Shown: positions 11,910 to 33,418 of the stretch, piece after piece
Layout of the letters: every line of letters starts with the position of its first letter
Position numbering within the stretch: the first letter of the stretch is position 1
NCBI GenBank assembly: GCA_964373715.1
Contig: CAYJVR010000001.1
Coordinates: 21,164 to 85,163 of the forward strand
DNA from: an uncultured Planctomycetia bacterium
GTDB taxonomy: Bacteria > Omnitrophota > Gorgyraeia > 1-14-0-20-64-10
DNA length: 64,000 nt
Reading direction: 5' to 3'
The notes under the pieces: model-generated
What the model was told of the DNA's origin: nothing
Seen by the model: only the letters and a program-made list of their open reading frames with translations
The model's database searches: none
Program-made: the position numbers and the translations under genes

Positions 11910-11994
11910 CACTCCTCGACGCCGGCTGTTAGAATAGCTGCGTTGTAAATCTTAGCAGGAAACACCCTTACCAACATTTTCGGGGAGATTCTCC

Positions 11995-13068: not shown

Positions 13069-13074
13069 AAACAG

Positions 13075-13150
13075 CCGTAAGGATTAAGCGGTAAGGATTA
13101 AGCGACACATCGCTTGAAGCGCTGGCTGCTTTGATCCTTACGGTTTAAAA
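13075..13150. repeat. Structured mreB-mreC intergenic element: tandem 14-bp direct repeat plus 10-bp inverted repeat sharing the CCGTAAGGA motif
   Basis: gtaaggattaagcg occurs twice in tandem (13077-13090 and 13091-13104). ccgtaaggat (13076-13085) and atccttacgg (13139-13148) form an inverted pair. The same motif builds the 10564 terminator stem. Confidence 0.5.
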
Positions 13151-13168
13151 CTTACGGCTCATTTTTTG

Positions 13169-14472: not shown

Positions 14473-14509
14473 ACGGACGAATAAGGGTTTTCCAAACCGG
14501 GATTTTCTC

Positions 14510-16234: not shown

Positions 16235-16238
16235 CCCC

Positions 16239-17342: not shown

Positions 17343-17549
17343 GAGCCAGCTCTAAGCTCCTCCTTCCTTAATAATAGAGCTCTGTTGATCCCTTGTTGAG
17401 TTCGGATTGTTTGTGCAAAGTATAGTTTGCGTCTAGTTATCAGAACCTTGAATTAACAAGCAGGAATAATCCATACTTGCACCGAGTGGTCATCATCTGT
17501 GTATGGTGATCTTCAATGAAGTTAGATTGCAGATAATAGAGAGTCTTCT
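17343..17549 (+). promoter_or_regulatory. AT-richer 207-bp intergenic region, probable promoter/regulatory region for the pilus-associated genes
   Basis: This is the only sizeable non-coding gap in the first 25 kb, with a local GC drop. No confident -35/-10 or sigma-54 box was identified. Confidence 0.3.
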
Positions 17550-17729
17550 ATGGATCGATTGATGACAATAGAAGAGGTCGCGGCCTATATGCAGATAAGC
17601 CGGTTCACTGTTTACCGGCTGGCCAAGGATCGTTCCATCCCGGCGACTAAAATTGGTCGGCAGTGGCGTTTCCATAAAGATGAAATTGACCGATGGATGA
17701 GGGAAAGATGCCAAAGAGATCCCCAATAG
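17550..17729 (+). CDS. Small stand-alone helix-turn-helix protein (excisionase/MerR-like HTH_17 family)
   Basis: 59 aa, MDRLMTIEEVAAYMQISRFTVYRLAKDRSIPATKIGRQWRFHKDEIDRWM. Below the ORF-track size cutoff. Overlaps the next gene by 37 nt in another frame. Confidence 0.55.
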   Translation: MDRLMTIEEVAAYMQISRFTVYRLAKDRSIPATKIGRQWRFHKDEIDRWMRERCQRDPQ

Positions 17730-19168
17730 TAAAGTCGGATTTTTCTCTCGTGTCCCGGGGGCTCCGAGAGAAAATGATCGTCGCTTTTTGCCTGATGTCG
17801 GTTGTGCCCCTTTTGGTTCTCATTTACATCGTGACGACTTACGCCACCCCGCATCTAAAGACCTGGTGGGATATCGGGATACTGATAGGCATCTCGGCTG
17901 GCATCTCTGTTTTGGGTTTTGTCGTTACCCGTTCGTTTGTTATCCCGGTTGTGAGATTAGCCGAAGAGGCGAAAACGATTGCCGAAGGTAAGGTAGATCA
18001 GCAGGTGGAAGTGACGACCGAAGATGAGATCGGTGCCCTGGGAAAATCGCTTAATGAAATCACGCATAGGGTCAGGGAGAACATGGCCCAGCTGCAGGTC
18101 TACGGCGAGGAGTCGCGCCATCTGCATTTAGAGATCAACCGCCGGATAGTGACGTTTTCAAACCTTCTGCAGGTCAGTAATCTGATTACCCAATCGGCGA
18201 AGGTGGAGGAGATCGTCGCATTTATTCTGGAGAAGCTCAGCCATTTGGAAGAGGTGGAACTCAACCTCTTTCTCGAGCCTTCCAGCAGCCCAGATCTCTT
18301 TGTCGTCCGGATGGCCATGGGCGCGGACCGATCGAAAGCGGATAAGGCCGCGAACGTCTCGGTTTCTCTTCCTTGGCTCCACCGTTGCGCCTCGGAGAGG
18401 AAGATGCTCGTTCTTGACGCCAATACGGGAATCCAGGAGGAAAAGGATCTTTTATGCCGGTATTTCGGCATGCTGAACGCTGTTTGCCAGCCGCTGGTCG
18501 GCATGGGCAAAGTGATCGGGGTCCTGGTATGCGGAAACTCAAAAGAGAACTTTACTTTTGACGATGACTCGCAGGATATCCTGAGGGTTTTTGCGAAACA
18601 GATGGCGATTGCCATTGAGAACGATCTGCTCGTCAATCGGGCTAAGAAGTTGGAGATCCTCGATGATCTGACCGGACTTTACAATGCCCGTTACTCGAAA
18701 AACCGGCTGGAAGAGGAGATCCATCGGTCCATGAGGTTTCACCACCCCTGCTCCCTCATGATCCTGAATATCGATGGTTTCAAGAAGATCCAGGAGCGTC
18801 ATGGCCAGCAGTCGGCGAATAAGATTCTCGTGCGGGCGGCGGACCTGATACGCGGGGAGCTCAGCGATGTGGATCGGGTAGGGCGCATCGGTCCAGATGA
18901 ATTCTGCCTCATTCTTCCGGAGAGAAACAAGCGGGAGGCTATTCAGCTTGCCGAAAGGATCCGCAAGAAGATCGAGACCAGCGTTTTTGTGAAAGAGGGC
19001 CAGAAAATTCCAGAGCCTTTGACGATCTCGGGAGGGATCAGTGAAAATCCTTTGGATGGTTCAACGAGCGATGAGTTATTCAATAAAGCAATGGAGTTAA
19101 TGAAACTGGCCAAAGTGCAGGGGAAGAACAGGATTAACCCCGATCTTCCAGGCCACACCAAGGTGTGA
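17693..19168 (+). CDS. Membrane sensor with 2 TM, HAMP, GAF-like and GGDEF domains. The GGDEF motif is degenerate (GPDEF), so this is probably a c-di-GMP effector or inactive cyclase.
   Basis: TM helices at aa 28-50 and 60-82, a HAMP segment, and a GGDEF fold (DLTGLYNARY...LNIDGFKKIQERHG...RIGPDEFCLILPE). The signature reads G-P-D-E-F at nt 18890-18904. The RxxD I-site position reads SDVD. Confidence 0.8.
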   Translation: MDEGKMPKRSPIVKSDFSLVSRGLREKMIVAFCLMSVVPLLVLIYIVTTYATPHLKTWWDIGILIGISAGISVLGFVVTRSFVIPVVRLAEEAKTIAEGKVDQQVEVTTEDEIGALGKSLNEITHRVRENMAQLQVYGEESRHLHLEINRRIVTFSNLLQVSNLITQSAKVEEIVAFILEKLSHLEEVELNLFLEPSSSPDLFVVRMAMGADRSKADKAANVSVSLPWLHRCASERKMLVLDANTGIQEEKDLLCRYFGMLNAVCQPLVGMGKVIGVLVCGNSKENFTFDDDSQDILRVFAKQMAIAIENDLLVNRAKKLEILDDLTGLYNARYSKNRLEEEIHRSMRFHHPCSLMILNIDGFKKIQERHGQQSANKILVRAADLIRGELSDVDRVGRIGPDEFCLILPERNKREAIQLAERIRKKIETSVFVKEGQKIPEPLTISGGISENPLDGSTSDELFNKAMELMKLAKVQGKNRINPDLPGHTKV

Positions 19169-19181
19169 GGGCTACTAAATT

Positions 19182-20291
19182 ATGGGCGCGACAATCATTA
19201 CTCTGCAAGGAGAGACAGCGTTAAAGCCCCAGATGGAGCAGATGCTGAAGCTGATGGTCGAACGGAGAGCCTCAGACCTCCACCTGACAGTGAATTCCCA
19301 CCCGATGCTGCGTGTGGACGAAGGGTTGATCCCCTTAACCGAGTTTCCGGTTTTTTCCGGCGAAGACACGAGAGTTTTTGCCTACAGCCTGTTATTACCC
19401 GAGCAGAAAAAAATGTTCGAAACCAATAGAGAGCTCGACATCTCGTTTGGCGTCAGCGGCATGGGCCGCTTTCGCGTTAACGTTTTTCTCCAGAGGGGAT
19501 CGGTGAGCGTGGCTCTGCGGCTTTTACCGGCAGAAATACGAACATTTGAGCAATGCGGCCTGCCCGGAAAAATCATGGAAGAACTGTGCCGGAGAAAGAG
19601 GGGACTGATCCTGATTACCGGTTCCACTGGGAGCGGAAAATCCACCACGATGGCTTCGATGGTCGAGTGGATCAACAGCAACCGCAGTTGCCACATTATT
19701 ACGGTGGAGGACCCGATCGAGTACGTTTATAAGAATAAAAAAGCGATTGTCGACCAGCGGGAGGTAGGGATGGACACCCATTCTTTCGGCAACGCTTTAA
19801 AGCATATGCTTCGGGAAGACCCCAATGTGATCCTGATCGGAGAAATGCGCGACCTCGAGACGATTGAGTCGGCTCTCAACATCGCGGAAACAGGGCACCT
19901 TGTGCTGGCGACCCTGCACACGAACGACGCTGTCCAGACGGTGAACCGCATCGTGGATGTTTTTCCCTCTCACCAGCAGCAGCAGGTGCGCGTCCAGCTT
20001 TCCTTCGTTTTGCTGGCGGTTATGACCCAGCAGCTGATTCCAAAAGCGGGTGGAATGGGCCGCGTTCTCGGGATAGAAATCCTGATGGCCAATCCGGCTG
20101 TCCGCTCGCTGATCCGTGAAGGGAAAGCGCACCAGATTTATTCGGTGATCCAGACCAGCCATCGGGAAGGGATGAGGACGATGAACCACTCGTTGGCCGA
20201 GATGCATGTCCGAGGTGACGTCTCCTATGAAGAGGCCTTGGGGCGCTCATCCGATCCGGAGGAATTCCTGCGTTTGATTCATCACAAATAA
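19182..20291 (+). CDS. pilT: Type IV pilus retraction ATPase PilT
   Basis: 369 aa. Walker A GSTGSGKST, Asp box, His box (ATLHTNDA), and the PilT-family AIRNLIREGK-like motif. Confidence 0.9.
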   Translation: MGATIITLQGETALKPQMEQMLKLMVERRASDLHLTVNSHPMLRVDEGLIPLTEFPVFSGEDTRVFAYSLLLPEQKKMFETNRELDISFGVSGMGRFRVNVFLQRGSVSVALRLLPAEIRTFEQCGLPGKIMEELCRRKRGLILITGSTGSGKSTTMASMVEWINSNRSCHIITVEDPIEYVYKNKKAIVDQREVGMDTHSFGNALKHMLREDPNVILIGEMRDLETIESALNIAETGHLVLATLHTNDAVQTVNRIVDVFPSHQQQQVRVQLSFVLLAVMTQQLIPKAGGMGRVLGIEILMANPAVRSLIREGKAHQIYSVIQTSHREGMRTMNHSLAEMHVRGDVSYEEALGRSSDPEEFLRLIHHK

Positions 20292-20328
20292 AGAACCGAA
20301 GGGTAAGCCATGTCGCTGCGGGGGATGG

Positions 20329-20763
20329 ATGATAGCAAAAAAATTGGGCGAACTCCTGGTGGAGCGGAAAGTGATCTCCCCGGAGCAATTAAGCGAGGCA
20401 TTTAAAATTCAGCAGGAGAAGGGCGGCTTGCTGGGGCAGATCCTCGTTGAGCTTGGCTATTCCACGGAGGAGGCTGTCGCCCAAGCGCTTACCGCCCAAT
20501 ACGGTTTCCCGTACCTTCCGCTGAAACATTACGCCATTGACAATGAACTCTTAATCCTTATCCCGGAGAACGTCGCGAAGCAGTATTGTCTGATCCCCGT
20601 CGATAGGATTGGCAACACTCTCACGGTGGCGATGGCGGATCCGTTGAACGCGAAGGCGGTTGAAGACATCGAGATGCTCAGCCGCTGTTCCGTGCAGGTG
20701 TTTGTGACTACGATGAGCGATGTCATTGAGGCGATCGGGCGTTGTTATGGAGCCAAGCCATGA
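20329..20763 (+). CDS. Stand-alone MshEN / GspE-N-terminal (T2SSE_N) domain protein, a putative c-di-GMP receptor
   Basis: 144 aa. KKLGELLVERKVISPEQLSEAFKIQQ and LLGQILVELGYSTEEAVAQALTAQ resemble the two 24-residue MshEN c-di-GMP-binding motifs (RLGxxLVxxGxIxxxxLxxALxxQ). Ends in an ATGA overlap with pilB. Confidence 0.7.
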   Translation: MIAKKLGELLVERKVISPEQLSEAFKIQQEKGGLLGQILVELGYSTEEAVAQALTAQYGFPYLPLKHYAIDNELLILIPENVAKQYCLIPVDRIGNTLTVAMADPLNAKAVEDIEMLSRCSVQVFVTTMSDVIEAIGRCYGAKP

Positions 20764-22496: not shown

Positions 22497-22497
22497 G

Positions 22498-24225: not shown

Positions 24226-24229
24226 AGCG

Positions 24230-25432
24230 ATGCCTGTTTTTGCTTATGTTGCTAAGATGGACGATGGCCGGACGGTGAAAGGCTTTCTGGAGGCCCACTC
24301 CAAGTCAGCGATGCTCGAAACGCTCCACAGGCAGGGGCTCATCGTTCTGGAGGTTAATATCAAGAAAGTCGCCGGTTCGCCCGCGTTCGGCGGGAGGGTA
24401 AAAGCGGATGACCTGGCTATTTTCTCCCGGCAGCTGGCCACCCTCGTGGATGCCGGTATTCCGATCGTCGGCGGTTTAGAGGCGGTCTCGGACCAACTCG
24501 AAAATCCGCAGCTCCGGCAGGTGGTGATCAAGATCTATGAGGCGGTAGAGGGGGGCATGAACCTGACGGCTGCCATTGCCAAGCAGAACGCCGTTTTCTC
24601 CCCTTTGTTCGTCAACATGGTCAGGGCAGGGGAAGCCAGCGGCCATTTGGCCGATGTTTTGGACCGGCTGGCGACTTATCTTGAAAAGAGCGCCGCCCTT
24701 CAGAGGAAAGTCAAATCGGCCTGTATTTATCCGGCGATCGTTATCTCGATGGCTCTGATCATCACCACGCTGCTGATGATCAAAGTGATCCCCGTTTTTA
24801 AACAGATGTTCGAGCAGTTGGATGTGGATCTTCCTCTCCCGACACAGATTCTCATAGCCACGAGCGACCTGATGGCGGCCTTTTTCCTTCCCGGAATCGG
24901 TTTGATCATCGCGGCGGTTTTTCTTTTCCGCCGCCTGATTAAGACGCCCAATGGGCGCCTTTGGTTCCACCGCTTTTTGCTGAAAGCGGTCATTGTCGGG
25001 CCGATCGTTCGGAAGGTCGCGATTGCCAAATTTGCCCGCACCCTTTCCACGCTTGTCAGAAGCGGTGTTCCGATCCTTTTGGCGCTGGAGATTGTTTCCG
25101 AAACGTCGGGGAACCGCGTGGTGGAGCTGGCTGTTCTTCAGGTGAGGGCCTCGATCAAGGAGGGGGAAAATATCGCGGCACCGCTGGCGGCCAGCAAGGT
25201 TTTCCCCCCGCTTGTTGTCCGGATGATTGCCGTGGGGGAGCAGACCGGCCGGCTGGATGACATGCTCACCAAGATTGCCGAGTTTTATGAAGATCAGGCA
25301 GATACGGCAATAGCGGGACTGACTAGCGCCATCGAGCCGTTGATCATTGCCGTTTTAGGTGTTGTGGTGGGAGGCATCGTGATTTCGATCTTCCTGCCGA
25401 TCTTCAAACTGACGCAGGTATTTTCAGGCTAG
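24230..25432 (+). CDS. pilC: Type IV pilus inner-membrane platform protein PilC/GspF
   Basis: 400 aa with two repeated GspF domains and 3 TM segments. Lies directly after the ATPases. Confidence 0.9.
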   Translation: MPVFAYVAKMDDGRTVKGFLEAHSKSAMLETLHRQGLIVLEVNIKKVAGSPAFGGRVKADDLAIFSRQLATLVDAGIPIVGGLEAVSDQLENPQLRQVVIKIYEAVEGGMNLTAAIAKQNAVFSPLFVNMVRAGEASGHLADVLDRLATYLEKSAALQRKVKSACIYPAIVISMALIITTLLMIKVIPVFKQMFEQLDVDLPLPTQILIATSDLMAAFFLPGIGLIIAAVFLFRRLIKTPNGRLWFHRFLLKAVIVGPIVRKVAIAKFARTLSTLVRSGVPILLALEIVSETSGNRVVELAVLQVRASIKEGENIAAPLAASKVFPPLVVRMIAVGEQTGRLDDMLTKIAEFYEDQADTAIAGLTSAIEPLIIAVLGVVVGGIVISIFLPIFKLTQVFSG

Positions 25433-25576
25433 ATTTATAGCCAAATTTTTGTTAATTAACCCCCATTTAATTTCTTTAGAAAAGTCAGGTATACTTCAAA
25501 TCAGAGGTTATTAGATTATTGTAATTCATTAGATATAAATGAGTTGTGTAAAATTCGTAAATGGGAGGATTATAAA
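25433..25576 (+). promoter_or_regulatory. AT-rich (about 25% GC) leader/promoter region of the major pilin gene
   Basis: 144-bp AT-rich gap ending in a GGGAGG RBS 8 nt before the pilin ATG. No clear GG-N10-GC sigma-54 box was seen. Confidence 0.3.
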
Positions 25577-26017
25577 ATGCATACTCTAAATCGTAAGAAC
25601 TCCAAGGGTTTTACGCTCGTGGAGATCATGATCGTAGTCGCTATTATCGCGCTCATCGCAGCCATCGCGGTTCCTAACCTTTTGAGAGCGCGCCATAACG
25701 CCAATGAGACCGCGGCCATCGGAAATGTGAGGACGCTGCTGTCATCCTTGGAGTCGTTCCGGGCGGCGCAGAGCCCTCCAGCTTATCCGGATGCTTTGGA
25801 TGAGTTGAGCGCTGCGGATCCCCAGTATGTGCCGGATGAGCTGACGGATGGTGATCAGCAAGGATATGATTTTATTTTCACCCAGGTCAGCGATAACGAG
25901 TATACCCTGATTGCTACTCCAACAGTGGATGGCGTGACGGGAACGCGGCATTTCTTCGTGGACCAGACGGGTGTTATCCGGGTTGGTGATGACGACACGG
26001 GTACGCCGATCGAATAA
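25577..26017 (+). CDS. pilA: Type IV major pilin (PilA-like prepilin)
   Basis: 146 aa. Leader MHTLNRKNSKG followed by FTLVEIMIVVAIIALIAAIAVPNLL (class III signal: G-1, F+1, E+5). Strong RBS. Confidence 0.85.
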   Translation: MHTLNRKNSKGFTLVEIMIVVAIIALIAAIAVPNLLRARHNANETAAIGNVRTLLSSLESFRAAQSPPAYPDALDELSAADPQYVPDELTDGDQQGYDFIFTQVSDNEYTLIATPTVDGVTGTRHFFVDQTGVIRVGDDDTGTPIE

Positions 26018-26028
26018 ACAGCGGAGAG

Positions 26029-26101
26029 GCGCTAGCTTAACGCTAGCATGCCCAAACATGCAGGGGCGGCGACCCAAAGGTTGCCGCCCCTGCATGTTTG
26101 G
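26029..26101 (+). terminator. Compound stem-loop after the major pilin gene: a 6-bp gctagc hairpin plus a perfect 19-bp-stem hairpin. No T-tract, so it is more likely an attenuator or mRNA-stabilising element.
   Basis: gctagc(26031-36)-ttaac-gctagc(26042-47). Then ccaaacatgcaggggcggc (26052-26070) pairs with gccgcccctgcatgtttgg (26083-26101) around a 12-nt loop. Confidence 0.55.
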
Positions 26102-26119
26102 AGTGGGAAAGGGCGATCC

Positions 26120-26533
26120 ATGATTTTTCCCGGGGTGGATAAAAGAAGGCGCAGTGCGTCAGGCTTCACGCTGATCGAAGTATTGGTCGGCATGGCGGTT
26201 TTTGTCACGGCGCTTGTCGTTTTGTTGGGGATATACACCGGTATCGCTGCTCTCAGGGAATCGGGCCGGAATACGACCCAAGCGGTGGCGGATGCGAGGG
26301 CCGTTCTGGAAGCGATGAGGGACAGGTCGTCGACCGGTTTGTCTAACGTAACTGCGCAGGATTGGACCCAGTGGGCCGAAGATAACGGGTTGACCTCTCT
26401 TGACAGTGAGGTGATCACTGTCGATTACGTGGATACGTCAGCAGATCCGCTGGAAATCACGGTTCAGGTGGATTGGGTGGAGCGGGTAAGGGAGCGCTCG
26501 ATGACCATCAGCACTTTGATGACGCAGAGGTGA
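26120..26533 (+). CDS. Minor pilin / pseudopilin (GspI/PilV-like)
   Basis: 137 aa. MIFPGVDKRRRSASG followed by FTLIEVLVGMAVFV prepilin signal. The ORF-track start at 26048 lies inside the hairpin and was rejected. Confidence 0.7.
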   Translation: MIFPGVDKRRRSASGFTLIEVLVGMAVFVTALVVLLGIYTGIAALRESGRNTTQAVADARAVLEAMRDRSSTGLSNVTAQDWTQWAEDNGLTSLDSEVITVDYVDTSADPLEITVQVDWVERVRERSMTISTLMTQR

Positions 26534-26535
26534 GA

Positions 26536-27090
26536 ATGGATTTGATCCGGCACAGAGGCGGTTTTACCTTGATGGAGATGATGGTGACTATGTCGATCGT
26601 CGTCGGCATTTCAGGAGTGCTTGTGGCGGTTTTTCGGATGAACCAGCAATGCTGGGAGGTGGCTCAGGCCCACCTGTCTGTTTCGATGGAGCTCCGGAGG
26701 GGGATGGACGAGATGAGCCGGGAGTTGACCTCCACGCAGGTGGCCCAGGTGGATATCCCGGCGGACGGTACCTGGTACCCCTCGATCACCTTTTCGGTGC
26801 CGGAGGATGTGGATGGGGACGGAACCGTGCTGGATTCCTCCGGGGCGATGGAGTGGTCGGACTCGATTACCTACTCGTTAGGGGGGGAGACTGAGGAACA
26901 GGCGCTCCGGGAACAGGACGGGGAGTTGGACCGGGTTATCGCCAACGGCGTGACGGAACTTGAGTTTAAAAGAGACGCGGCGACTCCGACTGTGGTCGAA
27001 GTGCGCATCTCGGTTGAAAAGGTTGTTCATACGAAAGACTTTCCTCATACAGCGACCTTGTCAACCCGTGTTCGGCTGAGGAATAACTGA
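26536..27090 (+). CDS. Minor pilin / pseudopilin (GspJ/PilW-like)
   Basis: 184 aa. MDLIRHRGG followed by FTLMEMMVTMSIVVG prepilin signal. Size and position fit a J-type minor pilin. Confidence 0.7.
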   Translation: MDLIRHRGGFTLMEMMVTMSIVVGISGVLVAVFRMNQQCWEVAQAHLSVSMELRRGMDEMSRELTSTQVAQVDIPADGTWYPSITFSVPEDVDGDGTVLDSSGAMEWSDSITYSLGGETEEQALREQDGELDRVIANGVTELEFKRDAATPTVVEVRISVEKVVHTKDFPHTATLSTRVRLRNN

Positions 27091-27127
27091 TTTTGGGTAT
27101 AGTTTTCATAACAAGCGGGGGTGTGCG

Positions 27128-28177
27128 ATGAAAACCGTTTGCGGTAGGCGGACGAAAGAACGGGGCTTCATTCTGCTGACCCTCTCCATGATGCTTCCTG
27201 CCTTTCTCATCTTGGCTGGAGGGGTGATGGCGTATGTGTGGACCGATTCGAGGGCCTCGCAAAGATCCGAAGCCTCCATGCAGGCGCTTTATTTGGCGGA
27301 GGCGGGGGTCGATCAGGCGATATTGGAGCTCACCGATAATTTTGACTGGGCCGGAGGCGAAGGGAATCTCGAGAGAGCGGGGGAATACAGCGTCACTGTG
27401 GAGTCGCTGCCGAACAGCCGGAGGAGAATCCTTTCCCAGGGAACGAGCGATAATCTGGGCGCCCTCGTGGGCCGGACCGTCGAGGTGATTGTGGAGCAGT
27501 ACCCGCCTCCCGATTTCTACGAATACGTCATCTGGGCGGCGCAGGATTTCGACCTTAAGGGCAACTCCTACAGTGTGACCGGCAAGGTCAAGCACGGCGA
27601 CACGTCGCCCACGAACAACACGGGGAATGTGATCGGGCCGATCGTCTACGACCCAAAAGCGAACCCCCTGCCGAAGCTGAGCTATCAAAAGCTCTATGAA
27701 ATGGCGCAGGGGCAGGGGAATGTCTACGATGCCGCCCGGATCGGCAACGGGCACGGCGTTTTCCCGACATCGTTCTGGTACCAGGCGCCAACCGACCCGA
27801 ACGACCCGACCACCGGGATCCCGAACATAAACTACATCACGACCGACTTGGTGCTCAACGGCAATATCGGGACGATCGGGGGATTCTTCGTTGTGGTCGG
27901 CGACGTGATTACGAATCCGTCATCCGTCGAGGATACGACGCTCAACGGAAACGGCCGGGTGGCAGGGGCCATCTATTCCAGGGGGGACTTCCGCGTCAAT
28001 GGGGGAGGAGCCAGGCTGAATGTGGATGGCGGGATCTGGGCGGGCCAGCAGGCCAGGCTGAACGGGAAAGTGACGATGACCTACAACTGGAACTATATGC
28101 ACGCGATCCAAGGGCTGAATCTCGAGCCGGATGTTACGGTGATTTCTTGGAGCGAAAGAGAGAATCAAGCGGAATAG
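27128..28177 (+). CDS. PilX_N / GspK-like minor-pilin tip-complex protein, paralog 1
   Basis: N-terminal ERGFILLTLSMMLPAFLILAGGVMAYVWTDSRASQRSEASMQALYLAEAGVDQAILEL matches the PilX N-terminal domain. Confidence 0.7.
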   Translation: MKTVCGRRTKERGFILLTLSMMLPAFLILAGGVMAYVWTDSRASQRSEASMQALYLAEAGVDQAILELTDNFDWAGGEGNLERAGEYSVTVESLPNSRRRILSQGTSDNLGALVGRTVEVIVEQYPPPDFYEYVIWAAQDFDLKGNSYSVTGKVKHGDTSPTNNTGNVIGPIVYDPKANPLPKLSYQKLYEMAQGQGNVYDAARIGNGHGVFPTSFWYQAPTDPNDPTTGIPNINYITTDLVLNGNIGTIGGFFVVVGDVITNPSSVEDTTLNGNGRVAGAIYSRGDFRVNGGGARLNVDGGIWAGQQARLNGKVTMTYNWNYMHAIQGLNLEPDVTVISWSERENQAE

Positions 28178-28216
28178 GCGGCCGGAGGTTCTTAAGTCCC
28201 GAATGAAAGGAGACCT

Positions 28217-29269
28217 ATGGCTGGAGTATGGATTCGCCTGAAATCACAAAGCGGTTTCATGCTGATCACGATTTACATGATGATTCCGTTGCTGCTTGTG
28301 ATGGTCGGGGCGATTGTGGCCTACGCGTTTTCCGATCTGCACGCCGCCCAGCGGTCGCAGGCGGACATGCAGGCGCTGTACATGGCTGAGGCCGGAATTG
28401 ATGATGCGTTGGTGCAGCTGCGGGACAGTTACAGCTGGACCGGAGGCTCCGGAGTCGGCGCTGGGGGAGAATACTCGGTCACGGTCGAGGATCTCGGCAG
28501 CAGCCGTTTGCGGGTAATGGCTACCGGGATGGCTGACAAACTGCTCGCTGCGGCGGTCAGCCATGCTGTCGAAATCATCGTGGAACAGGCTATCCCGCCG
28601 AATTTCTACGATAACGCGGTTTGGGCTTCGCAGAACCTGGATTTCAAAGGGAACGCGTATTCTGTTGCGGGGGCCGTCCGCCACGGGGATACGACGCCTT
28701 CTTCGACCGGGAACGTCAATGGGTCCGTTACCTACGATCCGGACACCAACCCGTTGCCGCGGCTCGATTTCGAACAGATCTACGAGATTGCGCAGGCGCA
28801 GGGAAATGTCTACGATGCTGCCCGGATTGGCAATGGGCACAATGTTTTTCCGACGTCGTTCTGGTACCAGCAGCCGACCGATCCGACCGACCCGACCACC
28901 GGGGTCCCGAACGTGAACTACATCACGACTGATTTGGTGCTTAACGGCAATATCGGAACGATCGGCGGTTTCTTCGTTGTCGTCGGGGATGTGATTACCG
29001 ATCCCTTCGCTGTCGAGGATACGACGATCAACGGCAACGGACAGGTTGCGGGAGCGATCTATTCCAGGGGGGACTTCCGGGTCACCGGCGGTGGAAATGG
29101 CCTGAACGTCAACGGTAGCGTATGGGCGGGAGACGAAACCCGTTTAAACGGCAAGGTGACAATGACGTACAACTGGGATTACATGCACGCGATAGAGGGG
29201 CTGGGCATCAACCCGGATGTCACCGTTATCTCCTGGCAGGATGGAGGATCGGTCCAAGAGGACGAGTAG
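28217..29269 (+). CDS. PilX_N / GspK-like protein, paralog 2 (recent tandem duplicate of paralog 1)
   Basis: About 70% aa identity to paralog 1. The C-terminal half is nearly identical, and also at the DNA level (for example 27700-27915 versus 28790-29000). Confidence 0.7.
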   Translation: MAGVWIRLKSQSGFMLITIYMMIPLLLVMVGAIVAYAFSDLHAAQRSQADMQALYMAEAGIDDALVQLRDSYSWTGGSGVGAGGEYSVTVEDLGSSRLRVMATGMADKLLAAAVSHAVEIIVEQAIPPNFYDNAVWASQNLDFKGNAYSVAGAVRHGDTTPSSTGNVNGSVTYDPDTNPLPRLDFEQIYEIAQAQGNVYDAARIGNGHNVFPTSFWYQQPTDPTDPTTGVPNVNYITTDLVLNGNIGTIGGFFVVVGDVITDPFAVEDTTINGNGQVAGAIYSRGDFRVTGGGNGLNVNGSVWAGDETRLNGKVTMTYNWDYMHAIEGLGINPDVTVISWQDGGSVQEDE

Positions 29270-29314
29270 CGCTCAAAGAACCCGCCACATAGATTATTTC
29301 GGAGGTGAATCCGG

Positions 29315-30448
29315 GTGTACTCAACGAGGAAAGCCCAAAAAGGGTTTGTTCTGGTCACGATCTACCTGCTGGTCCCGCTGCTGATCATTATGTCGACCAG
29401 CTTGGTCGCTTTCGTGCTCCAGGATATCCGTTCCGCCCAACGGGTTTGGGCGGCCACGGAGGCTTTTTTTCTGGCGGAGGCCGGGATTGACCGGGCTATC
29501 GCGGAGCTCAAAGAGGATGCCGCCTGGACGAGTGGGTTTTCTGAGGAGCCGCTGAACTCGATGGGAACCTACACGGTGACCGTGGAGGATCTCGGCAGCG
29601 GCCGGTTCCGGCTCACGACCGAGGGCAGCAGCGAGCTGCTTTCCGCGCCGGTTGTCAGAACGATCGAAGCGGTTGTGGCGGTGTTTCCGGCCGGCCTGTT
29701 CAATTTCGCCCTCTTCGGCGATGACAGCGTTACGCTGACCGGCAACGCCATGACCGACAGCTATGATTCCTCCGAAGGTTCGTACAATGCGGCGACCGCC
29801 GGTTCCGAAGGAGATGTCGGCACCAACGGGATTGCTGCCGGAAGCATCACGCTGAACGGAAATGCCCGCGTGAAGGGAGATGCGCTGATCGGGTCTGAGG
29901 GGGATCCGGATACCGGCATCACGATGACCGGCAACTCCGTGATCACGGGGATTCAGGGAACCGAGGATGAAGAGAAGGATTTCCCCGAGGTGACGATCCC
30001 TGAGGGGGTTTCCAATGGCGGTTCGTTGAGCGTGTCGGGCAACAAGACCAAGACCTATCCTGCTGGCACCTACTGGTGGTCGAGCATATCGGTTTCCGGC
30101 AACGGTCGGCTGCAGTTTACCGGCCCCGCGGTTGTTTACGTCACCGGCAATGTGAGCATCAGCGGAAACGGGATAAACACCTCAAGCAACCTGCCGACCA
30201 ACCTGCTGATTTTCGTTGCTGGGAACCAGAGCGTCAGCGTTTCGGGCAACGGCAATTTTTACGGCGGGATTTATGCCCCGGACTCCAACGTGCACATTTC
30301 CGGCAACGGCGCTTTTTACGGCGCCGTGATGGGCAAGACAGCGACCAACAACGGCAATGGCGGGGTCCATTACGACACGGCTTTGCGGGACGCCGTTTCC
30401 AGCGATGGTGCCGAAGTCGATATCCTTTCCTGGCGGGATCTTTCCTAA
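29315..30448 (+). CDS. PilX_N-domain protein, paralog 3, with a divergent C-terminus rich in T/SGN repeats (beta-helix-like)
   Basis: GTG start with a GGAGG RBS. N-terminal QKGFVLVTIYLLVPLLIIMSTSLVAFVLQDIRSAQRVWAATEAFFLAEAGIDRAIAEL. C-terminal repeats VTLTGNA / VSGNG / ISGNG. Confidence 0.65.
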   Translation: MYSTRKAQKGFVLVTIYLLVPLLIIMSTSLVAFVLQDIRSAQRVWAATEAFFLAEAGIDRAIAELKEDAAWTSGFSEEPLNSMGTYTVTVEDLGSGRFRLTTEGSSELLSAPVVRTIEAVVAVFPAGLFNFALFGDDSVTLTGNAMTDSYDSSEGSYNAATAGSEGDVGTNGIAAGSITLNGNARVKGDALIGSEGDPDTGITMTGNSVITGIQGTEDEEKDFPEVTIPEGVSNGGSLSVSGNKTKTYPAGTYWWSSISVSGNGRLQFTGPAVVYVTGNVSISGNGINTSSNLPTNLLIFVAGNQSVSVSGNGNFYGGIYAPDSNVHISGNGAFYGAVMGKTATNNGNGGVHYDTALRDAVSSDGAEVDILSWRDLS

Positions 30449-30503
30449 AATACTCCCCTGAAAATTCTCTGAATAAAGTCTAAAGGATTCCGATTATTTC
30501 TGT

Positions 30504-31619
30504 TTGGACTTAGGCCTATTCTGCGGTAGAATTCAGACCAAGGTGCCTAATCCACTTCTAGCGCAGATAAAAGCCTTGCCGACCCGTTGGGCAGGCGTAG
30601 GAAAGTTGGTTCACCGTTCAACAGCCTGCATCGGTTTGGATGTCGGTTCTTTTTCCCTCAAAGCCCTTCTTGTTTCCGGTTCTTCCGCGGTTCCCCGGCT
30701 CAAGCGGATGGCGCTGAAAAGTTTCCCGCCGGGCGCTGATCAGCGGCAAAAGGCCGAGATCATCCGGTCGGTTGTGAATTCGTTGGATGGCGGCCGGGAA
30801 GTTTCACTTGTGACCGGTGTCGGAGGAGTCGGCACGGTACTCAGGTCTGTTTCCCTCCCTGAAATGTCCGAAAAGGAGCTGAAAGCGGCCTTCTCTTTTG
30901 AGGCGGAAAAATATATACCGTTCAAACTGGAGGAGACCTTCTTTGATTCGTGCATTCTAGGGAAGCGGCCGGGTGGGCGCATGGAGGTATTGGTAGCGGC
31001 GGCCAGGAAGGAGCTGGTCAACGCCCATTTGGAATTGTTGTCTGCCGCGGGGGTTACCCCTCATATTGTGGATTTGGAGTCTTTGACGTTGGGCAACGCA
31101 TGGGGGTTTTGCCGCCCGGAAGCCGTCGGGGAATCGATGGTGACGGCCCTTTTGCACGTGGGGGCCAGAGGGACCATCCTGGATTTCTTTGAGGGGTCTC
31201 AGCTGCAGTTTACCCGTGAGATTCCGATCGGAGGGGATTCTTTCACGAAGACGATTGCCGAGAGTCTTCGGCTAAATTCTGCTGAGGCGGAAAAGGTAAA
31301 ATGCCAGCAGGGAGACCGGGCGCCGGAGGTTCGCGCTGCGCTGGAATCTTTGTGGGAAGATTGGCTTGCCCAATGCCGCGTGTCGTTTGATTTCTTTGAG
31401 AACCAGTTTGGCCGCAAGGTAGAGCGGCTTGTGCTCAGCGGCGGGTCTGCCCGGCTTATCGGTTTTAAAGACAAGATACTCCATTCCGTTGGTTTACCCA
31501 CCGATGAATGGAATCCTACAGCCGGGTTTTTATCCGATGTAGATCAGCAGGAACTGGTTTCCGCCGGGTCTTCGCTGGCGGTGGCGGTTGGTTTAGCAAT
31601 TCGTGGAGTTGCCAAATGA
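30504..31619 (+). CDS. pilM: Type IV pilus assembly protein PilM (actin-like)
   Basis: IGLDVGSFSLKALLV ASKHA-fold N-terminus. The true start is probably a non-ATG codon near 30606. Confidence 0.85.
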   Translation: MDLGLFCGRIQTKVPNPLLAQIKALPTRWAGVGKLVHRSTACIGLDVGSFSLKALLVSGSSAVPRLKRMALKSFPPGADQRQKAEIIRSVVNSLDGGREVSLVTGVGGVGTVLRSVSLPEMSEKELKAAFSFEAEKYIPFKLEETFFDSCILGKRPGGRMEVLVAAARKELVNAHLELLSAAGVTPHIVDLESLTLGNAWGFCRPEAVGESMVTALLHVGARGTILDFFEGSQLQFTREIPIGGDSFTKTIAESLRLNSAEAEKVKCQQGDRAPEVRAALESLWEDWLAQCRVSFDFFENQFGRKVERLVLSGGSARLIGFKDKILHSVGLPTDEWNPTAGFLSDVDQQELVSAGSSLAVAVGLAIRGVAK

Positions 31620-31641
31620 GGAGTTTCTTTCGAGGCCGCGC

Positions 31642-32442
31642 ATGATTCGGATCAATCTGCTGCCGTCCGGTGTCCGCAAGTCAAGATCCCCCCTTCGAGT
31701 CAGCGTTCCTTGGTTGGAGATTCTTATCCTCATCGTTGCGGTTACGGCTGTTTATTCGGGATGGATTCTGGTTTCTTCCCAGGTTCAAGGAAGGAAACTC
31801 AAGAGGTTGACGGACCAATGGGAGAAGATGAAATCCGAACGGACGAAGGTTGAAACAACGGAAGCGGCTCTGCGTGCTTTTGAGAACAGGGAAGCGATCC
31901 TTAAAGAGATTAAATCGCCTCAGTCCCAGTGGGCGCCTCGCCTGAATATCCTGGCGGATTCCATCGTTGCAAAACTTTGGTTTACTTCACTGGAATATAA
32001 GCCTGAAGAGGCTTCTGACGAAGATGCAGAGGGAGGGAAGAAGAAGCGGGTTAAGCGCAAGAGTGGGGACAAAGCAGGGGAGTCGCCCCAGGCCAGTAAG
32101 AAGGCTGAGTCAAAGAAAAAGAAGAAGAAAGAATCTTCCAAAAGATCGGGTAAAGAATCCGCGGGCAAAGAGGGAAAGTCAAAAAAACCTTCGTCCCGGC
32201 AGGGCCAAGGGCAGGCGGTAGCCAGCGTCCCGCCTCCCGCGCTTATCTTAAAGGGCGCCTCTTTTGTGGCCGAGCAGGGAAATGGAGCGGCCGTTAACAG
32301 GTACATCCAGAATCTGGAGCAGCACCCCGATTTTAAGCTCCTCTTTAAAGGACTGAAATTGAAAACAATCGAACATCGGCAGATCCAAAAGGAGGAGGTT
32401 TCCGATTTTACTCTTGAGCTGTATCTCAAAGGCGGCAAATGA
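31642..32442 (+). CDS. pilN: Type IV pilus assembly protein PilN, with a lysine-rich low-complexity insertion
   Basis: MIRINLLP N-terminal PilN motif plus a TM helix. There is an about 65-aa K/S/E-rich insert (nt about 32005-32205). Confidence 0.8.
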   Translation: MIRINLLPSGVRKSRSPLRVSVPWLEILILIVAVTAVYSGWILVSSQVQGRKLKRLTDQWEKMKSERTKVETTEAALRAFENREAILKEIKSPQSQWAPRLNILADSIVAKLWFTSLEYKPEEASDEDAEGGKKKRVKRKSGDKAGESPQASKKAESKKKKKKESSKRSGKESAGKEGKSKKPSSRQGQGQAVASVPPPALILKGASFVAEQGNGAAVNRYIQNLEQHPDFKLLFKGLKLKTIEHRQIQKEEVSDFTLELYLKGGK

Positions 32443-33035
32443 TGCTTAATCTGAAGCTTCCTTTGCTCGAGGGGAAAGAGTGGAAAGCGATCGTTGCCGG
32501 CGCGGGGATTGTGGTGGGGCTGTTTGTCTGGTTGCAGCTCTTCATCATCCCGCAGCGCAGCAGTTTAATGGACAGCTGTTCTCGAAATAAAACGATTGTG
32601 AAAGATATGGCCCTTCTTAAGGAGAAGATTGCCAAGTTTCCGGAGATGGAGAAACAGTTGATCCAGTTGGCGGGCCAGTACGACCCCCGGATGGTAACGA
32701 CCCCTCCGGAGAAGCAGCTGCCTGAGATTCTCGAAGTGATTGCTCAGGCCGCGAAAGCATCGGATGTCCGCCTGCTGGGCGCGAAGCCGAGGATGGAGAT
32801 CAGCGATCTTTCTCCCGGCTCATCCGGTTTCTTGGAGCTTCCTGTTCAAGTGGATGCCTCCGGAGGGTATCATCAATTGGGTCTTTTCTTGGATTCTTTG
32901 GAGAGTTCGAGGATGCTTGTGCGTGTGCATGAGTTAAAGATACAGACCAACCCGGAAGATATATGGCATCATCAGGCAACATTCGTTCTCTGGACCTATC
33001 TGTTCCCTGTAGTAGGAGACCAGTCAAAATCGTGA
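32439..33035 (+). CDS. pilO: Type IV pilus assembly protein PilO
   Basis: 198 aa, N-terminal TM and coiled coil. ATGA overlap with pilN. Sits in the pilMNOPQ order. Confidence 0.8.
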   Translation: MMLNLKLPLLEGKEWKAIVAGAGIVVGLFVWLQLFIIPQRSSLMDSCSRNKTIVKDMALLKEKIAKFPEMEKQLIQLAGQYDPRMVTTPPEKQLPEILEVIAQAAKASDVRLLGAKPRMEISDLSPGSSGFLELPVQVDASGGYHQLGLFLDSLESSRMLVRVHELKIQTNPEDIWHHQATFVLWTYLFPVVGDQSKS

Positions 33036-33418
33036 GGAGAGTTCTTGCTGCGGCACTAGTTTTTTGCTCGTGCGCAGGTTTTCTGTCTGTTCAGCCGGCG
33101 TTCGCAGAATACCTCCCGAAAGGGAAAAGGGATCCGTTTGTCCTTTTGATTACCCCGGATGGGCAGAAGGTTTATCCCCCCGGTTTGGATGAGGAAGTGG
33201 CCGCCAGGGTGGACAGCTTCGCTCTTCAGGGGATTGTTTTTGATCCGAACGGAGATTCTTTTGCTGTGATCAACGGCGAGGTTGTCCATGAAGATGACGA
33301 GCTGGATGGGATAATAATCTTGAAGATAGACCCGGACATGGTGACGGTGCTGGTGGACGGCAAAGAAGACCAGCTTACCCTCAGCCAGCCAATAAAGGAG
33401 AATGAGACAGAGCCATGA
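33032..33418 (+). CDS. pilP: Type IV pilus assembly protein PilP (signal-peptide/lipoprotein-like)
   Basis: GTG start overlapping the pilO stop. Signal peptide VRRVLAAALVFCSCAGF, then a PilP-like beta domain. Confidence 0.65.
   Translation: MRRVLAAALVFCSCAGFLSVQPAFAEYLPKGKRDPFVLLITPDGQKVYPPGLDEEVAARVDSFALQGIVFDPNGDSFAVINGEVVHEDDELDGIIILKIDPDMVTVLVDGKEDQLTLSQPIKENETEP

Follow-up and report, generated by a model that had tools for sequence, protein, structure and literature searches.

The window analysed here, a stretch of 64,000 nucleotides from an uncultured Omnitrophota bacterium, contains a complete type IVa pilus (T4aP) cluster at 17550-35112, headed by a gene for a degenerate GGDEF protein. 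Judged from sequence comparison, this protein is on balance best read as a membrane-anchored, probably dimeric pseudo-cyclase that would act as a nucleotide-blind transducer or adaptor of the Omnitrophota T4aP cluster. Its GGDEF fold most likely no longer makes c-di-GMP and binds neither GTP nor c-di-GMP at the classical sites; sensing of either nucleotide finds no support, because neither nucleotide site is conserved. The GGDEF domain is nevertheless under purifying selection despite its decayed sites, and the gene keeps its place beside the pilus motor genes in every informative locus.

Gene and protein architecture

The gene corresponds to the open reading frame 17693..19168 on the + strand, 491 aa as listed. 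The probable start is the ATG at 17708, which gives 486 aa and corrects the listed start at 17693, because a GAGG sequence (17699-17702) lies 5 nt upstream of it and the 90%-identical homologue P0001 begins with MPKRP. A basic N-terminus precedes two hydrophobic helices (aa 28-50 and aa 61-84; 17774..17944, + strand) separated by a loop of ~10 residues, which appear in the AF2 model (mean pLDDT 86.7) as helices H23-54 and H58-97. Sequence and model together predict an N-in topology with two transmembrane (TM) helices and without a periplasmic domain. These are followed by a HAMP domain (aa 78-129; 17924..18079, + strand; PF00672 37.4 bits, cut-off 25), a long and highly conserved helix (aa 112-166) on the N-terminal side of the GAF domain, the GAF domain itself (GAF/GAF_2, aa 170-309; 18200..18619, + strand; PF13185 41.6 bits, PF01590 33.9 bits; AF2 pLDDT >90), for which a further ligand is possible, and a GGDEF-fold domain (aa 323-480; 18659..19132, + strand; PF00990 113.8 bits, E 8.5e-33, cut-off 23.8; TIGR00254 111.5 bits). 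The HAMP-GAF-GGDEF membrane architecture of the original prediction is thus borne out by the Pfam matches to all three domains and by the two hydrophobic helices. No EAL domain was found in the protein by Pfam.

The GGDEF fold is modelled with pLDDT >90, and the AF2 model superposes on the GGDEF crystal structures 3ign, 7a7e and 4urs at an rmsd of 1.2-1.6 A (Foldseek), so that both the PF00990 profile match and the fold match place the domain in the GGDEF superfamily. A Foldseek comparison of the full model with the PDB returned only generic GGDEF and GAF-GGDEF cyclases; the fold is intact and gives no other functional clue. Since canonical cyclases are the closest matches in both sequence and structure, the family probably descends from a cyclase of the canonical GAF-GGDEF or HAMP-GGDEF type.

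Loss of catalytic and allosteric residues

Aligned with PleD by phmmer (2wb4 numbering), the protein runs without gaps through the whole catalytic core. The signature pentapeptide is GPDEF (GGT CCA GAT GAA TTC, aa 400-404; 18890-18904, + strand) instead of GG(D/E)EF and falls on PleD G368-G369-E370-E371-F372, and the I-site position reads SDVD (AGC GAT GTG GAT; 18863-18874, + strand) instead of RxxD, falling on PleD R359-x-x-D362. Both motifs had been placed correctly by the original prediction. The gap-free alignment also rules out an alternative A-site elsewhere in the domain, and searching all six-frame ORFs of the window with the GGDEF domain of PleD (phmmer) revealed no second intact GGDEF, the sole match being the ORF 17693..19168.

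The substitution of Pro for the second Gly (PleD G369) had been expected to abolish cyclase activity. As far as the sequence can tell, the case for a dead domain is stronger than that, since three A-site support residues are replaced as well (N359, Q367 and N376; 18767..18820, + strand): the metal ligand D327 is N359 (codon 18767-18769), and the guanine-binding residues N335 and D344 are Q367 (codon 18791-18793) and N376 (codon 18818-18820), respectively. Further PleD residues are lost at H340 (Q372), R300 (A332) and D435 (M467). Seven PleD reference residues serve by convention to judge GGDEF activity (PMC6629876, citing Wassmann 2007), and three of these seven are lost here in addition to the second signature Gly. 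Among the hallmarks of an active diguanylate cyclase (EC 2.7.7.65), the GG(D/E)EF glycine pair, the metal ligand D327 and the guanine ligands N335 and D344 are therefore all disrupted. A one-off mutation or sequencing error is ruled out as the source, because the homologue P0001 also carries GPDEF and the whole family is degenerate.

Part of the pocket is retained. D402 in place of PleD E370 is an acceptable metal-ligand swap, PleD K332, R366 and K442 are kept (the phosphate-binding K442 as K474), and R446 is Lys478, so that D402-E403-F404, R398, K364, K474 and K478 are all present. The second I-site Arg (PleD R390, PelD R402) is also an Arg in the window protein (R422).

Family-wide decay of the nucleotide sites

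Relatives were found in 313 stretches of species-representative genomes, and there are 751 clusters at 50% identity (E<=1e-30), a count that includes canonical cyclases too. By alignment of 121 close homologues and 80 species-representative loci, the signature decay is ancient and family-wide. The 121 homologues carry 47 different signature pentapeptides, the commonest being GPDEF (22) and GDNEF (18); GPDEF, whose conservation among orthologues had been proposed as a check, is not shared by all of them. The second signature position is D in 43, P in 39 and G in 9 of the aligned sequences. At the D327 position N (79) outnumbers D (23), the N335 position is occupied by Q (59), R (21), H (21) and only twice by N, the D344 position by E (106), D (13) and N (2), and the E370 position is N in 34/121; with N at D327 plus GDNEF, many members lack both metal carboxylates. 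The full canonical catalytic set occurs in 0/121 homologues. More distant members, represented by clusters at 50% identity, show almost no constraint on the signature, for example GHHLF, DRDIF, EKNSF and SWDEF. The same search also listed non-family matches, and these have the canonical DDKND/RDR/GGEEF/KR pattern.

These counts bear on whether the protein could still be an enzyme, namely a weak or unconventional nucleotidyl cyclase that supplies c-di-GMP or another cyclic dinucleotide locally to the adjacent MshEN domains. Public annotation labels the family 'diguanylate cyclase', active cyclases are the nearest relatives of known structure, among them the promiscuous Geobacter GacA (6d9m), a literal GGDEF pentapeptide occurs in 8/47 variant-A loci, and an operon with receptors and a phosphodiesterase would otherwise be incomplete for want of a cyclase. 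Nevertheless, even the members with a literal GGDEF (e.g. P0088, P0126) lack N335 and mostly lack D327, and the absence of the canonical set from all homologues, the disappearance of both metal carboxylates from many of them and the 47 forms of the site argue that there is no selection for chemistry. We therefore regard residual enzyme activity as extremely improbable.

GTP sensing needs the base-binding residues N335 and D344 and a stable A-site; for Caulobacter PdeA (GEDEF), GTP binding without turnover at a degenerate A-site has been proposed. A comparable role here, in which the degenerate A-site would bind GTP or another NTP without turnover and inform the pilus motors of the energy or GTP state of the cell, could draw on the retained D402-E403-F404, R398, K364, K474 and K478 and on the degenerate FimX motif as a precedent for GTP binding (PMC11656802). 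However, the base residues (N335 to Q, D344 to N) and one metal ligand (D327 to N) are replaced, and neither the protein nor the scanned ORFs of the window contain an EAL domain, which leaves no downstream EAL to regulate as in sensors of the PdeA/FimX type. With Asn at the N335 position in only 2/121 homologues, where Q, R, H or another residue stands instead, and with an unconserved signature, no common nucleotide pocket appears to be under selection; the GTP sensor of the original prediction is very unlikely. Most close homologues retain the phosphate-contacting K442 (K in 110/121) and a basic residue at R446 (K in 96/121), and R366 never varies, so that the A-site of the window protein may still bind some nucleotide or phosphate; many distant family members have lost the K442 and R446 equivalents.

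The I-site has decayed as thoroughly. Sensing of c-di-GMP in the manner of PelD or PopA needs RxxD, placed five residues ahead of the signature, and a second Arg. The lack of the I-site Arg, noted for SDVD in the original prediction, extends to the whole family: the Arg position is T or S in 105/121 homologues, the RxxD Arg is found in 0/80 species loci, and the R390 equivalent varies among A, E, S, N, T and D. The site that defines I-site receptors of the PelD, PopA, CdgA and SgmT type is consequently missing, and the proposal of a c-di-GMP sensor is not sustained at this site.

Conserved features of the family

What the family has kept lies elsewhere. Mean column identity is 0.70 in TM1, and in the GGDEF domain it is 0.64, higher than in HAMP (0.58) and GAF (0.49). 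In TM1, L34, M35, P39, L40, L41, V42 and Y45 are each conserved at >=90%, with P39 invariant; this conservation, together with the lack of a periplasmic domain, fits intramembrane sensing or partner binding. Near-invariant residues of the GAF domain are K181, D242, P267, N282 and Q303, and those invariant in the GGDEF domain are D324, T327, E342, R345, C353, R398, P409, E410, E451, N452, P453, D455 and G456 (numbering of the window protein).

Two of these features are family-specific. Cys353, at the start of strand beta-1 (18749..18751, + strand), is invariant in 81/81 sequences; this position is Cys in nearly all family representatives, and in the canonical cyclases matched by the same search mostly Leu, Phe or Val, with Cys in two. 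The near-invariant motif S450-E451-N452-P453-L454-D455-G456 (19040..19060, + strand) stands at the end of the last core strand, with E451, N452, P453, D455 and G456 invariant in 81/81 sequences; 'CENPDG' is found in 78/80 species loci (46/47 variant A, 30/30 variant B and 2/3 unclassified), and the E-N positions are S/T-Y/F in canonical cyclases. Judged by the ferredoxin-like 4-1-3-2 topology only, C353 and E451/N452 would lie at one end of the sheet, with the A-site at the opposite end.

Members of the family defined here, the Omnitrophota pilus-cluster HAMP-GAF-dGGDEF family, are ~440-500 aa long and combine two TM helices, HAMP and GAF with a GGDEF fold that carries C353 and, beyond the last core strand, E-N-P-x-D-G. 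Their genes immediately precede pilT, or a stand-alone MshEN gene, together with pilB-pilB-pilC. The window protein has every one of these features.

Genomic context in the pilus cluster

The gene start is overlapped by a small ORF of 59 aa with an excisionase-type helix-turn-helix (HTH_17; 17550..17729, + strand; PF12728 69 bits). Only 13 nt downstream of the GGDEF gene lies the gene for the PilT retraction ATPase (19182..20291, + strand; TIGR01420 474 bits); a terminator scan found no terminator between the two, and a promoter and terminator scan of 17200-20400 gave counts at or below the shuffle expectation. It is followed by a stand-alone MshEN-domain protein of 144 aa (20329..20763, + strand; PF05157 73.6 bits) and two tandem PilB-type assembly ATPases with an N-terminal MshEN each (20742-22496 and 22480-24225, + strand; TIGR02538 604 and 629 bits). 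Pfam scans assigned the rest of the cluster, from pilC to the pilQ secretin (24230..35112, + strand), including three pilin-like genes (25544, 26048 and 26473, + strand), three genes without assigned function, one with DUF7305 (27128-30448, + strand), and pilM, pilN, pilO, a T2SSB-like gene and pilQ.

This arrangement is strikingly constant. In 77/77 informative species loci, pilT (47 loci) or the stand-alone MshEN gene (30 loci) comes next, and pilB-pilB-pilC follow it in the same orientation; six further metagenome loci show this gene order as well. The functional link to the type IV pilus in the original prediction is supported by this synteny. Its description of the gene as directly upstream of pilT and the pilB genes holds in the window, but the emphasis on pilT was too narrow, as pilT is not adjacent in 30/77 loci; the neighbours present throughout are the stand-alone MshEN protein, the two PilB paralogues and PilC. 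Conserved gene order is an association, not a mechanism.

The upstream neighbourhood raises another option, that the protein does not control the pilus and instead regulates cell-wall elongation (mreBCD-mrdA-rodA) or the overlapping HTH_17 protein, and hence transcription. RodA and PBP2 are encoded upstream in 40/46 loci with room for them, and ORFs of 60-66 aa equivalent to the HTH_17 ORF of the window overlap the gene start in L001, L002, L006 and L008. Yet in some loci the gene is no longer joined to rodA, and its pilus link never breaks: in L008 a 6-kb insertion with a transposase parts rodA from the gene, which stays beside the pilus genes. The HTH_17 ORF is upstream in only 15/80 species loci, with a radical-SAM gene in its position in L003/L004 and L005, and the gap from rodA to the HTH ORF is 208 nt, against the 13 nt between the GGDEF gene and pilT. 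A role outside the pilus is accordingly improbable.

The same context introduces c-di-GMP. The stand-alone MshEN protein scores 65 bits against the NCBIfam c-di-GMP motif NF053729 (cut-off 38), the two PilB proteins score 36 and 30 bits, both below that cut-off, and a REC-HD-GYP gene whose HD and HHExxDGxGYP motifs are intact is present in variant-B operons. Because of the MshEN score above the cut-off and this variant-B gene, c-di-GMP is probably relevant to the operon. A c-di-GMP role for the GGDEF fold itself would be a parsimonious guess on context alone. Across 73 sequences, comprising the protein of the window and 72 orthologues, the stand-alone MshEN protein keeps its Leu/Gly/Gln scaffold but has both motif Arg replaced (Q in 54/73, L in 72/73). 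No EAL, HD-GYP or PilZ domain was found among the window ORFs scanned by Pfam, which covered all except those at 9706-13984 and a few short ones; the scanned ORFs are otherwise housekeeping genes and the pilus cluster.

Comparison with known GGDEF proteins

PelD is a membrane-anchored protein with a GAF domain and a catalytically dead GGDEF domain, is encoded in the operon of the envelope machine that it controls, and binds c-di-GMP at an intact I-site formed by R367, D370 and R402 (PMC7112168). The protein described here resembles it in the membrane anchor, in the cytoplasmic GAF domain followed by a dead GGDEF fold, and in being encoded in the operon of an envelope machine. In contrast to PelD, the Omnitrophota family is missing both I-site Arg positions, and PelD lacks a HAMP domain and regulates a polysaccharide synthase (the Pel system of Pseudomonas aeruginosa and Bacillus cereus) rather than a pilus, whereas the operon here is a type IVa pilus cluster. 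A specific relationship to PelD was not detected, with no match to its Pfam family and no PelD among the best 60 of 95 PDB matches (E<=0.001).

The parallel with a proven receptor (PMC7112168) lends some weight to a further explanation, that the protein relays c-di-GMP to the pilus motors as PelD, CdgA and FimX do, binding it in the GAF domain or at a non-canonical site on the GGDEF fold formed by the invariant D394, R395 and R398 and conserved basic residues. MshEN domains on three neighbouring proteins, one of them above the motif cut-off, the apparently intact phosphodiesterase of variant-B operons and the conservation of the D362, R366 and K442 equivalents in the family are compatible with it. 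However, ordinary cyclases conserve D362 and R366 too, so that these provide no evidence of a new site; both I-site Arg of PelD and PleD are missing family-wide, the hairpin of the A-site, where c-di-GMP is also known to make contact, is hypervariable, and the adjoining MshEN-only protein itself lacks both motif Arg. We consider such a receptor rather unlikely.

FimX of Pseudomonas and Xanthomonas combines a degenerate GGDEF (GDSIF) with regulation of the type IV pilus, acting on pilus assembly through PilB directly or via PilZ, and is a precedent for a non-catalytic GGDEF pilus regulator (PMC11656802). Sequence comparison detects its GGDEF domain as a relative (3hva, E 5.7e-16). FimX differs in being a soluble REC-PAS-GGDEF-EAL protein that senses c-di-GMP in its EAL domain and whose GGDEF domain is thought to bind GTP, whereas the protein here is membrane-bound, with a HAMP-GAF input, no EAL and no conserved nucleotide site. 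Canonical cyclases (PleD, WspR, Dcsbis PA2771 and YfiN/TpbB) share the fold and the stalk-plus-GGDEF design, but keep D327, N335, D344, GG(D/E)EF, K442, R446 and often RxxD, which the Omnitrophota family does not, and the latter has instead fixed C353 and E451-N452. CsrD, GdpS and PdeB-HubP are similar in retaining the GGDEF fold for a non-catalytic, nucleotide-independent role. NCBIfam similarity is weak and below the curated cut-offs, at 73.6 bits for GdpS (cut-off 400) and 31.9 bits for CsrD (cut-off 663). They differ in domain context and target (RNase E adaptor, staphylococcal regulation and polar landmark, respectively), and none is a component of a pilus operon. The GGDEF domain of PdeB with HubP is a precedent for this fold as a protein-interaction module (PMC9061725).

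Proposed role and significance

For the nucleotide-blind transducer favoured here, a signal would be perceived by the strongly conserved TM1 in the membrane, by the GAF domain in the cytoplasm or by both, and would travel along the HAMP/coiled-coil/S-helix stalk so as to change the position or pairing of two GGDEF-fold domains. These could then serve as a protein-interaction output to the motor module, comprising the stand-alone MshEN protein, the two PilB, PilC and, where present, PilT, and the output would gate pilus extension and retraction. It is above all the protein-protein output and its partner that we infer in this scheme, along with the lost activity and nucleotide binding and the operon-level functional link. 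A more speculative extension, which we hold to be unlikely, is that a local c-di-GMP circuit has been fossilised and rewired, with the nucleotide-dead cyclase and the MshEN protein, which lacks both guanine-contacting Arg but keeps the remainder of its binding scaffold, forming a membrane-to-motor relay that would switch the two PilB and PilT. The dead GGDEF fold would dock on the MshEN module, possibly in place of c-di-GMP, and TM1 may sense the pilin pool or PilC. If this were true, a pseudo-cyclase would be a core, phylum-wide structural component of the T4aP machine.

The Omnitrophota are uncultured, mostly ultra-small bacteria, in which T4aP are nearly universal and are believed to attach the bacteria to their host or prey cells (PMC10066038). 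GGDEF, c-di-GMP and diguanylate cyclase are unmentioned in that study, and no description of the family was found in the literature on Omnitrophota with GGDEF, pili or diguanylate cyclase; the family is an undescribed variant within the known class of degenerate GGDEF regulators. In public records the family members bear the name 'diguanylate cyclase' or 'sensor domain-containing diguanylate cyclase'; this annotation is very probably mistaken and makes counts of c-di-GMP genes for the phylum too high. Since it opens the pilus cluster as its first large gene in all informative genomes studied here and has many relatives, the gene probably provides the phylum's main dedicated input to pilus activity. 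The family also offers a clean natural case of pseudo-enzyme evolution, in which the catalytic hairpin drifts freely and another face of the fold turns invariant. C353, E451/N452, TM1 and the MshEN-only partner provide handles on how pilus extension and retraction are gated in these uncultured organisms.

Domain architecture and loss of the catalytic site

The degenerate GGDEF gene (dGGDEF gene) is a real ORF of 491 aa on the forward strand (17693–19168), with Pfam matches for the HAMP (aa 78–129), GAF (aa 170–309) and GGDEF (aa 323–480; 113.8 bits, E 8.5e-33) domains of the original prediction. ATG 17708 is likely the true start, because GAGG precedes it and the homolog P0001 (90% identical) begins MPKRP; all the domains are unaffected. 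Behind a basic N-terminus come two hydrophobic helices (aa 28–50 and 61–84, about 10 residues apart; helices 23–54 and 58–97 in the AlphaFold2 model), and the predicted topology is N-in and two-pass, without a periplasmic sensor domain.

The C-terminal 179 residues were aligned with PleD (phmmer; 2wb4 numbering) without a gap over the entire catalytic core. GPDEF (18890–18904, forward strand; codons GGT CCA GAT GAA TTC) falls on G368-G369-E370-E371-F372 and SDVD (18863–18874, forward strand; codons AGC GAT GTG GAT) on R359-x-x-D362 of the allosteric I-site, which places both motifs correctly, and no second candidate catalytic site (A-site) was found in this alignment. According to the passage of PMC6629876 that cites Wassmann et al. 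2007, GGDEF activity is conventionally judged by PleD D327, K332, N335, D344, E370, K442 and R446. Three of these seven residues are lost in the dGGDEF protein, namely the metal ligand D327 (Asn359) and the guanine-binding N335 (Gln367) and D344 (Asn376), in addition to the second Gly of the signature. H340 is replaced by Gln, R300 by Ala, R446 by Lys, and the Asp of the C-terminal ‘RAD’ motif by Met, while K332, R366 and K442 are kept. The loss of three reference residues and the signature Gly makes cyclase activity very unlikely, and established structure–function knowledge gives us high confidence that catalysis has been lost. The domain had been predicted to be dead from its signature; the residue losses are wider than was then seen.

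Degeneracy across the family

Searching a collection of 5.8 billion proteins yielded more than 120 full-length homologs (E below 1e-100, 37–90% identity), all sharing the HAMP-GAF-GGDEF architecture, and all those bearing source names were labelled Candidatus Omnitrophica/Omnitrophota and annotated as ‘diguanylate cyclase’. Public names such as ‘diguanylate cyclase’ or ‘sensor domain-containing diguanylate cyclase’ are attached to P0002, P0006, P0035, P0047 and other homologs. Among 121 aligned sequences, the second signature position is D in 43, P in 39 and G in 9; the N335 position is Q in 59, R in 21, H in 21 and N in 2; the D344 position is E in 106, D in 13 and N in 2; the D327 position is N in 79 and D in 23; and the I-site Arg position is T in 65, S in 40 and R in 2. 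GPDEF itself is not conserved among orthologs, the 121 sequences having 47 different signature pentapeptides, and none of them carries the complete canonical residue set; the name ‘diguanylate cyclase’ is thus probably a systematic misannotation. The second I-site Arg (PleD R390) is Arg in the window protein and A, E, S, N, T or D among the family. Judged by these alignments, the whole family is degenerate and the window gene is no exception in it.

HMMER, run exhaustively against 1.84 billion cluster representatives, retrieved 751 clusters at E <= 1e-30, canonical cyclases included. Among the best 150 of them, the signature of the distant members is essentially free (GHHLF, GGNQF, SDSEF, DRDIF, EKNSF, SWDEF and others), and unrelated longer proteins further down carry the canonical D-D-K-N-D, R-D-R, GGEEF and K-R residues. 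An A-site pocket that varies so widely is not being selected to bind one given nucleotide. GTP sensors such as PdeA and FimX depend on a nucleotide pocket that is conserved and, as a rule, on an EAL domain that they regulate; the GTP-sensing mechanism first proposed finds neither here and is very improbable. Residual or unusual cyclase activity, for which the family likewise offers no conserved pocket, is the least credible of the readings.

Constraint on the fold

Mean column identity is higher in the GGDEF domain (0.64) than in GAF (0.49) and HAMP (0.58). Invariant residues in the 81-sequence alignment include D324, T327, E342, R345, C353, R398, P409, E410, E451, N452, P453, D455 and G456. 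The DxLT turn, R366 and the P-x-D-G loop are shared with GGDEF domains generally, whereas Cys353 and Glu451-Asn452 are family-specific; canonical cyclases in the HMMER search mostly have Leu/Phe/Val and Ser/Thr-Tyr/Phe, respectively, at these positions. Given the family alignment, AlphaFold2 yields a confident model (mean pLDDT 86.7, above 90 over GAF and GGDEF), whose GGDEF domain superposes on the cyclase crystal structures 3ign, 7a7e and 4urs at 1.2–1.6 Å. C353 opens strand beta-1 and E451/N452 close the last core strand, and from the ferredoxin-like 4-1-3-2 topology these ends should be neighbors on the side of the sheet that lies farthest from the catalytic hairpin. With the fold constrained and the residues so placed, selection appears to have left the active site for a different face of the domain.

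A conserved position at the head of the pilus cluster

The dGGDEF gene stands at the head of a complete type IVa pilus cluster, in which all genes lie on the forward strand. It is followed after a 13-nt gap without terminator by pilT (19182–20291), and then by a gene for a stand-alone MshEN protein of 144 aa (20329–20763), two pilB genes (20742–22496 and 22480–24225), pilC (24230–25432), three pilin-like genes (25544–27090), three genes without assigned function (27128–30448), pilM, pilN and pilO (30504–33035), a T2SSB-like gene (32963–33418) and the pilQ secretin gene (33415–35112). The three unassigned genes, of about 350 aa each (two without a Pfam match and one with DUF7305), may code for minor pilins, for a tip adhesin or for components particular to this cluster. 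About 4 kb past pilQ lies an extra pilin-like gene (39512–39979, forward strand; 155 aa, N_methyl motif), with mgtE, RNase E/G and a TPR-peptidase gene between it and the cluster. No other GGDEF domain was found in the window, and no EAL, HD-GYP or PilZ domain in the scanned ORFs, which comprise those outside 9706–13984 except for a few short ones; the remainder of the scanned ORFs are housekeeping genes. Further along the forward strand, one ORF (61215–61742) joins a bactofilin domain to a C-terminal HTH_17, an unusual union of cytoskeletal polymer and DNA-binding domain, and a second HTH_17 ORF (61640–62071) overlaps or adjoins it.

Gene order was identical in six metagenome loci with homologs of 39–66% identity. 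Scanning one genome per GTDB species gave 313 stretches encoding a relative; the best 80, all from Omnitrophota or PVC-labelled MAGs, were annotated using the window proteins. Many of these MAGs (L012–L014, L017, L018, L020, L023, L024 and others) are TPA assemblies titled ‘uncultured Planctomycetia/Planctomycetales bacterium’, probably a coarse or wrong label for Omnitrophota genomes. In all 77 loci with downstream sequence, the next gene is pilT in 47 (variant A) and the stand-alone MshEN gene in 30 (variant B), with pilB-pilB-pilC after it on the same strand. This bears out the predicted pilus link and makes a pilus-related function highly likely. The tandem full-length PilB-type assembly ATPases are a duplication that almost all orthologous loci have kept; the pair may represent two specialized extension motors or a hetero-oligomer.

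Upstream of the cluster lie mreB-mreC-mreD-mrdA(PBP2)-rodA (11995–17342, forward strand) and an HTH_17 ORF (17550–17729, forward strand; 59 aa, 69 bits), which overlaps the start of the dGGDEF gene by 22–37 nt and may encode a transcriptional regulator of the cluster. rodA is upstream in 40 of the 46 loci with room, where the whole mreB–rodA set adjoins the cluster, so this arrangement is the usual one among the Omnitrophota genomes studied. The dGGDEF protein could instead serve the elongasome, or act in transcription together with the HTH_17 protein; however, such links break in some genomes and the pilus link never does, which leaves this alternative improbable. In the metagenome locus L008, a 6-kb insertion with transposase parts rodA from the dGGDEF gene while the pilus genes remain adjoining; among the 80 species loci the HTH_17 ORF is confined to the 15 nearest to the window, and the more distant L003/L004 and L005 have a radical-SAM gene at its position.

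Cyclic di-GMP-related neighbors

Among the 80 species loci, almost all orthologous clusters with downstream room have a gene for the stand-alone MshEN protein (about 145–150 aa). Against the NCBIfam c-di-GMP motif model (cut-off 38 bits) the window copy scored 65 bits, and the N-terminal MshEN domains of the two PilB proteins 36 and 30 bits, below the cut-off. In 73 aligned sequences (the window protein and 72 orthologs), the Gly, Leu and Gln positions of the binding scaffold are almost invariant; the leading Arg is replaced by Gln in motif 1 (54 of 73) and by Leu in motif 2 (72 of 73), both outside even the relaxed published motif. Its c-di-GMP binding is ambiguous, because the score exceeds the cut-off yet both leading Arg residues are replaced.

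In variant B, which has no pilT after the dGGDEF gene, a gene of about 1 kb lies between the second pilB and pilC in 14 of 15 loci; its REC-HD-GYP product has kept both the HD and the HHExxDGxGYP motif intact (L003, 13556–14626; L034, L035, L041, L049, L054, L056–L058, L060, L067, L071, L081 and L084). This apparently active enzyme, in an operon full of c-di-GMP-related parts, leaves some room for c-di-GMP bound by the dGGDEF protein at a non-canonical site, a reading we consider unlikely though likelier than GTP sensing. A receptor of the PelD/PopA/CdgA type needs RxxD; its Arg is present in none of the 80 species loci, so the c-di-GMP-receptor mechanism originally envisaged finds no support here. 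We speculate that the ancestral operon plausibly had a functional local circuit made up of cyclase, HD-GYP and MshEN receptors, and that the cyclase later decayed to an adaptor.

Proposed role and significance

A nucleotide-blind pseudo-cyclase is the best-supported reading, and we lean slightly towards nucleotide independence. The protein would be a dimeric HAMP/GAF transducer held in the membrane by the conserved transmembrane pair, with the GGDEF folds as an output surface facing the pilus motor module; direct protein–protein output from this fold is a tentative proposal. The input could be a small molecule on the GAF domain or intramembrane, the latter because TM1 is the most conserved helix and its Pro39 is invariant. 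As constant neighbors, the stand-alone MshEN protein, the two PilB paralogs and PilC are the best candidate partners; pilT is missing from the adjacent position in 30 of 77 loci.

By architecture the closest analog is PelD (TM-GAF-dead GGDEF, inside the operon it controls), but the dGGDEF protein lacks its defining I-site and has no specific sequence relationship to it. FimX is closest in biological role and differs in architecture and sensing domain, while the active cyclases PleD, DgcR, WspR and Geobacter GacA are closest in sequence and structure; the family presumably descends from ordinary active cyclases. Proteins of this kind are already known, since CsrD, GdpS and PdeB-HubP use GGDEF folds in nucleotide-independent roles. 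The novelty lies in the family, which spans the phylum, keeps its place at the front of a type IVa pilus cluster, has lost the two nucleotide sites and shows an invariant patch elsewhere. No description of it was found in the literature, and a major Omnitrophota genomics paper (PMC10066038) treats type IVa pili at length without mentioning GGDEF or c-di-GMP. Recognizing the family corrects a probable systematic ‘diguanylate cyclase’ misannotation, and the family members are probable dedicated regulators of the pilus with which Omnitrophota are thought to contact hosts or prey.
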